Positions 47,832-49,031 of a DNA stretch of 64,000 bases are shown here, piece after piece. The position numbers and the translations under genes were made by a program. The stretch lies in NCBI RefSeq assembly GCF_988242995.1, contig NZ_OZ547043.1; one strand, 5' to 3'. Positions within the stretch are counted from its first letter, which is position 1. Every line of letters begins with the position of its first letter. The notes under the pieces are model-generated. The model ran no database searches. It was given only the letters and a program-made list of their open reading frames with translations, and was not told the origin of the DNA.

Positions 47832-49031
47832 TGCCGGTTGCTTCCGGAAGGTGTGACAAAATACGGAAATGATGATGCTCCCGGCCCCGCATGCTCACCT
47901 GCAGAGCGTGTTCGTCGTCATCATACTGAGCCATGACGGGCGTCTTAAGGGCATCCTGTCATTGCTGAGCAGGCAACACCACCAGAGGAGCCACGGACAG
48001 GGATGTTCTTTACAGCCCGATACACGCCAGGTTCTCAGCAGACTGAATGTGCAGGTGCGGTTATTCACCAGAAATGGCATGCTGCGGTACATACCCATCC
48101 TGGTGACAATATGTACGTGGCGACAGCGATCCCGGCACTGTGGAAGAGACTCACTCAGCCTGCAGGATATTCTTTCCGGCATCCGGGAATGTCCGCCTGA
48201 ATGCAAACAGGATGATATTTGAATCCGTAATACTGTTCTTTCATCATAAATAATTTATGCAGATACAGTTAACCGTTACAGTAGCCGGTTTGTTTTACCG
48301 GGAAATAATATCCGTCAGACTGATACCGGAACATATCTGAAACACGTTATGATGTTTTGTTATCAGAAATGTTGTATATTCTTATCCGTGGCGACAGTTT
48401 AATGCCCTCTGGTATCACCTGATAATGTATATCCTGCGATGATTCGTTATATTTACGGGACACGCCTCTTTTCATTGTGCTCCTTTTCAGACTTCATTTT
48501 CCGTAAGTGTTCCCCGGCATAAAGGAGGTACCTTTCTGGCGTTTATAACTCTCTTTATCGGTGACGCCGGTAATACAGGGAATACCACACCGACAAACGA
48601 GGTATTAACAGACGATATTTCAGTGTCCATAATTTTTCTGTCCGGTTAAATAACGTCAGTCTGCTGCCCTCTGACTGTAATCATCAAAGCCGGAATGCAT
48701 ACCGGGTTACAACGTAAAAAAAGTGATGCTGGCCCCCGGTGCAGCTGGCGGGCGAAACATGTTTACCTTTCAATACCCCCTGTCTGCAGTCTCCACTCTT
48801 CCATCCTCTTAAGCTACGTCGGCCACATGAGTGCACTTCCATGATAACAGGTATTCCTGTCAGCATAACGAAGCCGGTTACCTTCCCTTCCTCCTGCATT
48901 TCCTGTCAGAATGACTATACAGCGCGCAGATTGCCTTTTTATTGACCATCTTAATATACCATTATAAACTTCTTTTTATCATATTATTATCACCTTATTA
49001 TGTTTAATTTTTAAGCAGCCGGAGAAAGAGG

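Follow-up and report, generated by a model that had tools for sequence, protein, structure and literature searches.

A mosaic intergenic region with a truncated alpA and a conserved predicted control box in a CP4-like island of Escherichia coli

Regulators of mobile elements are found with divergent promoter/operator regions, for example those autoregulated by the ribbon-helix-helix (RHH) repressors CopG, Arc/Mnt and ParG. AlpA (PF05930), the prophage CP4-57 regulatory protein, and the IsrC / IS102 RNA (RF00124) of CP4-44-type islands are two further described systems close to the locus considered here, the 1.2-kb gap between an uncharacterised 200-aa gene and an uncharacterised 305-aa gene in an E. 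coli island. We found no account of this region in the literature on yeeP, Ag43, alpA and the islands. Its pieces all belong to known kinds. As in RHH-autoregulated regions, a short AT-rich control region precedes a gene whose product has a beta-helix-helix-like C-terminal motif, and three similar hexamers lie one helical turn apart and are conserved far above the neutral rate. Unlike in those systems, the divergent partner gene is destroyed in the E. coli lineage of the window (the whole 64,000-nucleotide stretch of DNA analysed), and the control region is a predicted one. The lost partner is alpA, of which the gap holds a stub. Residues 1-38 of AlpA can be matched codon by codon to the L018 version of this stub (L018 being a diverged E. 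coli allele), and the stub lies at the exact alpA start position of Salmonella, Serratia and related islands, beside the equivalent intergenic region. The stub differs from AlpA in that about half of the ~68-aa protein is left and the window copy is frameshifted and unseen by Pfam, whereas the intact alpA of the window is found 1.5 kb further left and points the other way. IsrC, like the gap, is a non-coding intergenic feature upstream of Ag43 in the same island family, but it sits outside the gap, at 51023-51259, and has no match to 47832-49031.

The window is part of an E. coli chromosome, and the island occupies the pheV site: tRNA-Phe (38647-38722) lies beside speC and yqgA and is followed by an integrase and the CP4-like island (Table 1). 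The left arm of the island contains a complete IS66 unit (tnpA, tnpB, tnpC) at 41015-43195, as well as the truncated Hha/YmoA-family gene. On the right, IsrC separates Ag43 from the gene of the YfjP-type GTPase, the same as in K-12 CP4-44. The initial annotation had recognized no convincing coding frame in the gap and only short, implausible ORFs overlapping on both strands. Both observations are borne out. The gap has the stated limits, with the last base of the 200-aa gene at 47831 and the first of the 305-aa gene at 49032, and the longest internal ORF, 117 aa (47869-48222, +), overlaps one of 103 aa on the minus strand. The longest ORF in composition-matched shuffles is 83 +/- 21 aa, and 117 aa is reached by 7% of them; the ORF content of the gap is therefore that of random sequence. 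Furthermore, none of the internal ORFs is kept in diverged alleles, where frames are shifted, start codons are missing and indels have lengths not divisible by three. The description of the gap as partly AT-rich is correct, with an uneven distribution. GC content is 0.556 (47832-48160), 0.40 (48161-48530), 0.476 (48531-48940) and 0.264 (48941-49031), compared with 0.519 in the whole window, and the 200-nt window 48700-48899 reaches 0.515.

Table 1. Features of the gap and of its neighbourhood in the island
Feature	Position	Strand	Evidence or remark
Zinc-ribbon genes and Gp2/YagK-family gene	left of alpA	-	
Hha pseudogene (truncated Hha/YmoA-family gene)	46047-46220, left of alpA	-	
Intact alpA	46928-47134	+	PF05930, 35 bits
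Uncharacterised 200-aa gene	47229-47831	+	
Gap	47832-49031	none	
Segment A, non-coding 3' flank of alpA/200-aa cassette	47832-48155	none	alignments to L003, L004, L005
Segment B1, AT-rich filler	48170-48530	none	40% GC; confined to E. coli islands with the 305-aa gene
alpA' stub, first ~33 codons of a second alpA, 3'-truncated and frameshifted	~48530-48630	-	nhmmer, tblastn, L018 alignment
Remnant of ancestral divergent alpA (leftward)/305-aa gene (rightward) intergenic region	48631-48940	none	weakly conserved
Conserved control region of 305-aa gene (promoter-like, operator-like, leader)	48941-49031	+	6- and 10-locus alignments, promoter scan
Promoter-like TTGACC-17-TAAACT	48942-48970	+	promoter scan, 9/12
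Three hexamers TTATCA, TTATCA, TTATGT, 11 bp apart	48976, 48987, 48998	+	
Near-invariant 35-nt box holding the three hexamers	48976-49010		
Purine-rich Shine-Dalgarno	~49021-49031	+	
Uncharacterised 305-aa gene	49032-49949	+	
YfjP-type GTPase	50034-50906	+	
IsrC / IS102 RNA	51023-51259	+	Rfam RF00124, 74.6 bits, full length
Ag43	51278-54124	+	

About 1,285 of 5,426 complete E. coli genomes contain 80% or more of the gap, on the chromosome in every case. E. coli matches to its pieces share the same island context throughout and are mostly found in one copy per genome; neither transposase similarity nor multi-copy spread in unrelated contexts, the marks of an insertion sequence or MITE remnant, was detected for these pieces. 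Searches of plasmid and phage collections returned no genuine plasmid match to the pieces and no phage match to the whole gap. A long ORF-free stretch 5' of the 305-aa gene is not peculiar to the window, and measures ~400-1000 nt in all nine relatives examined. The gap is also broken in natural isolates. An IS3-family element is inserted at ~48136 in one of them (L008 2763-3991) and an IS1 element in another (H44). In UMNK88 gap homology stops at ~48789, abutting an IS66 copy (L009 1327-3915), and in K207-3 (L010) a deletion joins a truncated integrase to the 305-aa gene, of whose upstream DNA only 153 nt are kept. Between the window and L018, a diverged allele with the same overall architecture, the 305-aa genes are ~97% identical, versus only 64-80% for the gap, with many indels not multiples of three. 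BLAST against E. coli genomes revealed that parts of the gap differ in their distribution. The region 47832-49031 is a mosaic of five pieces with differing ancestry, and constraint is absent across 47832-48940. We consider it likely that a rearrangement in a pheV-associated CP4-like island left the gap behind as non-coding DNA from several sources, with a selected control region at its right end. Such a mosaic origin through rearrangement of an alpA cassette is absent from the three options considered initially, namely, a decayed gene, a regulatory region of the downstream AT-rich gene and a non-coding RNA locus.

The leftmost piece, segment A, adjoins the 200-aa gene in other island variants as well, with 87-94% identity in L004 and L005 and 70% in L003, never with an intact ORF. 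Beyond it, those variants run into other DNA, including IS21 and IS66 remnants. Segment A is less conserved than the four-fold sites of the 200-aa gene (69.6 versus 79.5% in L003 and 86.8 versus 95.4% in L004). Pfam gave no match to it. A word-index protein search with pieces of 47832-48254, concatenated in six frames with X spacers, yielded zero matches, a weak negative because the identical 65-aa ORFs of RefSeq were missed by the same search. Scanning a genome collection with the 200-aa protein returned two loci only (Yersinia and Serratia), uninformative on segment A. In L003, the 70% cassette variant, the stop codon of the 200-aa gene is followed at ~4900-4935 by a perfect 12-bp stem, CCACAGGGCTGG...CCAGCCCTGTGG; the window has at the matching position merely a short palindrome, CTTCCGGAAG.

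The only RefSeq features in the gap are two 65-aa "hypothetical" calls, WP_001333284.1 (47737-47934, -) and WP_001329788.1 (48003-48200, +), with 48201-49031 unannotated in the records examined. That one of these, or a 42-aa ORF at 48347-48475 (-), is a real small-protein gene is highly improbable in our judgement. The two former ORFs are annotated by PGAP in some genomes, and the latter has a strong AAGGAG Shine-Dalgarno sequence 4 nt 5' of its ATG. However, near-identical genomes vary from two to four "hypothetical" calls to none. The plus-strand 65-aa ORF is frameshifted after ~15 residues in the 87% allele, whereas the minus-strand one has another start and another stop in the 70% allele. 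The 42-aa ORF lacks both the ATG and the Shine-Dalgarno sequence in L018, its database variants appear frameshifted or read-through, and Pfam matches none of the candidates. Thus, both 65-aa ORFs, unconserved in diverged alleles, look spurious.

Segment A ends at a join at ~48155-48170. Similarity to the cassette variants, including L004, stops at 48154, and similarity to L018 begins at 48170. In E. coli genomes searched with BLAST, everything to the right of the join (48170-49031) is always accompanied by the window-type 305-aa gene. The first piece on that side, B1, exists in two alleles that are ~69% identical and differ by many indels not multiples of three. Its only two matches in the plasmid collection are megabase-sized, chromosome-like records. 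A profile of the ancestral region comprising the 197-aa gene and alpA does not match B1, and exhaustive HMMER searches with its six-frame pieces retrieved only short ORF calls made on this very DNA, with no homolog detected. B1 is probably junction DNA from the rearrangement. Two other interpretations of this segment were rejected. The minus-strand peptide MMKEQYYGFKY (48155-48247) was considered as the start of a decayed 197-aa gene, but the whole-gene nhmmer profile ends at ~48513. The inverted repeat 48155-48177 / 48301-48323 was considered as a MITE or hairpin; its folding z-score is only -2.1 and, by visual comparison, it is not preserved in L018.

Could most of the gap represent one or more decayed protein genes besides the alpA stub? 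One remnant is demonstrably there, IS21 istB and other pseudogene fragments occupy this slot in related islands, and segment A is stop-free for long stretches on both strands. Against this, the stop codons of segment A are common to alleles that are 30% diverged. HMMER searches with six-frame pieces of at least 28 aa from 48107-49031 against 1.84 billion representatives found no long protein: all matches were of at most 123 aa, with 74-100% identity, and correspond to ORF calls on the gap DNA itself, some of them fused to IS or junction sequence. The frameshifted, read-through and IS-fused database variants indicate that the small ORFs are not maintained. Ten six-frame gap pieces had no match in Pfam, 30 proteins encoded nearby in the island (Gp2/YagK family, 197-aa family and others) matched nothing beyond the alpA stub in tblastn, and the DNA profile of the 197-aa gene and alpA extends no further left than ~48513. 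We regard extensive gene decay as unlikely. The suggestion of a decayed gene, and of remnants of island proteins in the gap, therefore stands for ~100 nt only.

These ~100 nt are an alpA pseudogene fragment on the minus strand, as evident from its homology, conserved position and disrupted frame. An nhmmer profile of the unit formed by the 197-aa gene, alpA and the intergenic region, built from four relatives, gives one continuous alignment to window 48533-49027 (E 1.5e-55), in which the alpA start codon maps to 48628-48630 (-). All five AlpA orthologs used in tblastn, as well as the AlpA of the window itself, match minus-strand 48521-48583. In L018 the stub is in frame, within a 51-aa ORF that shows 14/38 identities to AlpA residues 1-38 in an ungapped alignment (pairwise E 5e-6). 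The window stub has a 4-nt deletion relative to all five other aligned sequences and is therefore frameshifted. AlpA homology stops after ~33 codons, and the rest of alpA and the 197-aa gene were undetected further left by the DNA profile. Translations of the stub have no Pfam match even at E <= 10, with the complete ~51-residue AlpA/HTH_17 domain being absent.

The provenance of the stub is illuminated by relatives of the island. Homologs of the 305-aa protein with 48-79% identity are found in Salmonella, Serratia, Enterobacter, Edwardsiella and metagenome assemblies. The pair of the 305-aa and GTPase genes, with the former first, is conserved in CP4-like islands of E. coli and of these four other genera. 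In eight of nine loci, the 305-aa and GTPase genes point rightward, and alpA and its partners (the 197-aa gene where present, and Gp2/YagK-type genes) point leftward; the ninth, L018, is arranged as the window. In three Salmonella loci (L011, L014, L015) and one from Serratia (L012), alpA directly adjoins, separated from the 305-aa gene by a divergent intergenic region of ~420 nt, and in L013, L017, L019 and L020 the immediate neighbour is a Gp2/REP-type gene, with 600-1000 nt free of ORFs. Besides the Salmonella, Serratia and Enterobacter relatives, the divergent alpA arrangement occurs in a diverged E. coli paralog, and it appears common to Yersinia as well. Direct comparison shows that the alpA/200-aa cassette of the window (46928-47831) is inverted relative to Salmonella and Serratia, and by gene order its orientation is opposite in L013-L017 and L020 too. 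The zinc-ribbon genes (in Salmonella) and the 305-aa and GTPase genes are collinear with the window. The alpA/200-aa genes and the 305-aa gene are thus co-directional in E. coli and divergent in all non-E. coli relatives examined (L011, L012, L014, L015, L017 and L006 compared).

The orientation of the cassette, different from that in non-E. coli relatives, implies that the island backbone was rearranged in E. coli. A simple inversion is not the explanation, because the old intergenic region and the DNA 5' of the intact rightward alpA are unrelated. More likely, judging from these comparisons, the cassette came from another island variant and truncated the resident alpA where it was joined. 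In the ancestral state, alpA and the 305-aa gene would have been divergent, with a common control region of ~420 nt. A cassette of alpA and the 200-aa gene, oppositely oriented and bringing its own 3' flank, would then have been joined to the 305-aa/GTPase operon, and the join would have cut the resident alpA after ~33 codons. After such an event the gap would consist, from left to right, of the cassette flank, the filler, an alpA stub that is dead, a left half of the control region in decay and a right half still under selection.

The two halves differ in conservation. In the left one, 48631-48940 can be aligned with five relatives, and in a blastn match of 72-75% identity to Salmonella L011 the window segment, 48712-50524, continues into the 305-aa gene. 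The mean pairwise identity of 48832-48940 is 0.60 among six close loci and 0.42 among ten loci, below that of third codon positions. The box at the right, by contrast, has values of 0.93 and 0.78, respectively, the ten loci reaching down to 49% protein identity. Corresponding values are 0.89 and 0.80 at second codon positions and 0.705 and 0.56 at third positions. The box is hence as conserved as second codon positions and far above third ones, and 48941-49010 is under strong constraint. The idea of a regulatory region serving the downstream AT-rich gene survives for the last ~90 nt, where strong purifying selection coincides with a promoter-like site. Of the traits of an H-NS-silenced promoter, the one observed is AT-richness (26% GC at 48941-49031). 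Only these ~90 bases look functional. A hydrophobic 21-codon frame with a TTG start (48942-49007) was considered and rejected, for the alignment shows a stop codon in Salmonella.

The promoter scan found 7 promoter-like sites versus 2.9 +/- 1.8 expected. At the predicted sigma-70 site before the 305-aa gene, the -10 region is kept in relatives and the -35 is not. Most likely, 48941-49031 acts as a sigma-70 promoter of the 305-aa/GTPase operon, combined with an operator of three TTATCA-like sites phased by 11 bp. The predicted operator has the helical-turn-phased repeats under purifying selection that are expected of RHH-type operators, and the RHH-like pattern at the C-terminus of the 305-aa protein leads us to propose this protein as its binder. 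Pfam gives this protein a sub-threshold MatP_N match, with the RHH-like C-terminus being suggestive, and no family, PDB or convincing fold match was found. A fold check for RHH did not bear the pattern out: the AF2 model (pLDDT 78) is all-helical, with no convincing PDB match. In other E. coli islands, the place in front of the GTPase gene is taken by a non-homologous 290-aa protein (L004 7588-8460). It has a sub-threshold RHH_7 match close to the C-terminus, and a perfect palindrome, AATCACGTGTGATT, lies upstream (L004 7530-7587). The 290-aa protein may have an analogous regulatory role and use another operator.

Promoter-like sites on the minus strand also fall on the box, suggesting that it may originally have served both divergent operons. 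A bolder version of this idea, which we hold to be doubtful, is that the CP4-like islands of Enterobacterales have a conserved two-way switch with the box as its operator. AlpA would be the leftward side of the switch and the 305-aa protein the rightward side, which would control the arm with the GTPase, Ag43 and toxin-antitoxin genes. In ~1/4 of complete E. coli genomes this switch would have been broken when the resident alpA was truncated. The leftward promoter that survived may then give rise to a long antisense RNA that crosses the gap and enters the incoming alpA/200-aa cassette at its 3' end.

The third initial option, a non-coding RNA locus, found no support in Rfam, folding z-scores or covariation. 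The gap is a long ORF-free stretch of an island in which a bona fide small RNA, IsrC, lies 2 kb downstream, and there are mild fold signals at 48240-48359 (z about -2.4 to -2.6) and 48150-48330 (z -2.1), as well as weak terminator-like hairpins on the minus strand (48095-48076 and 47883-47864). Nevertheless, the gap is very unlikely to encode a small RNA, whether structured or of the Hfq type, or a long leader RNA with a regulatory role. The Rfam scan proposed initially was carried out with Rfam 15 covariance models on 44000-53000 at E <= 1, and retrieved only IsrC and a chance miRNA match, none in the gap. Sliding-window z-scores are mostly between -2 and +2 on both strands, the leader of the 305-aa gene has no stable RNA fold (z = -0.5), and no plus-strand terminator-like site lies within the gap. 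In RNAalifold with six relatives, the covariation terms (+1.23 and +1.79 kcal/mol) are penalties on both strands, with no compensatory support, and the divergence, with its many indels, is at or above the neutral rate. PapR, an island-associated small RNA of the uropathogenic strain UTI89, was considered as gap content and rejected, the primer sequences from S3 Table of the PapR paper being absent from the window. A long-range hairpin is conserved in relatives and degraded in the two E. coli alleles, and its loss fits a lost alpA-leader function.

The mixed ancestry that we favour for the gap accounts for an unannotated stretch of 1.2 kb in about 1,280 of 5,426 complete E. coli genomes. It marks the 65-aa "hypothetical protein" calls made here and there in this stretch as spurious and adds one alpA pseudogene stub, so far unannotated. 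Outside annotation the importance is small, and the control box alone merits experimental work. This conserved box precedes the first, uncharacterised gene of the GTPase/Ag43 arm in a widespread family of islands and offers an entry point for studies of how they are regulated.
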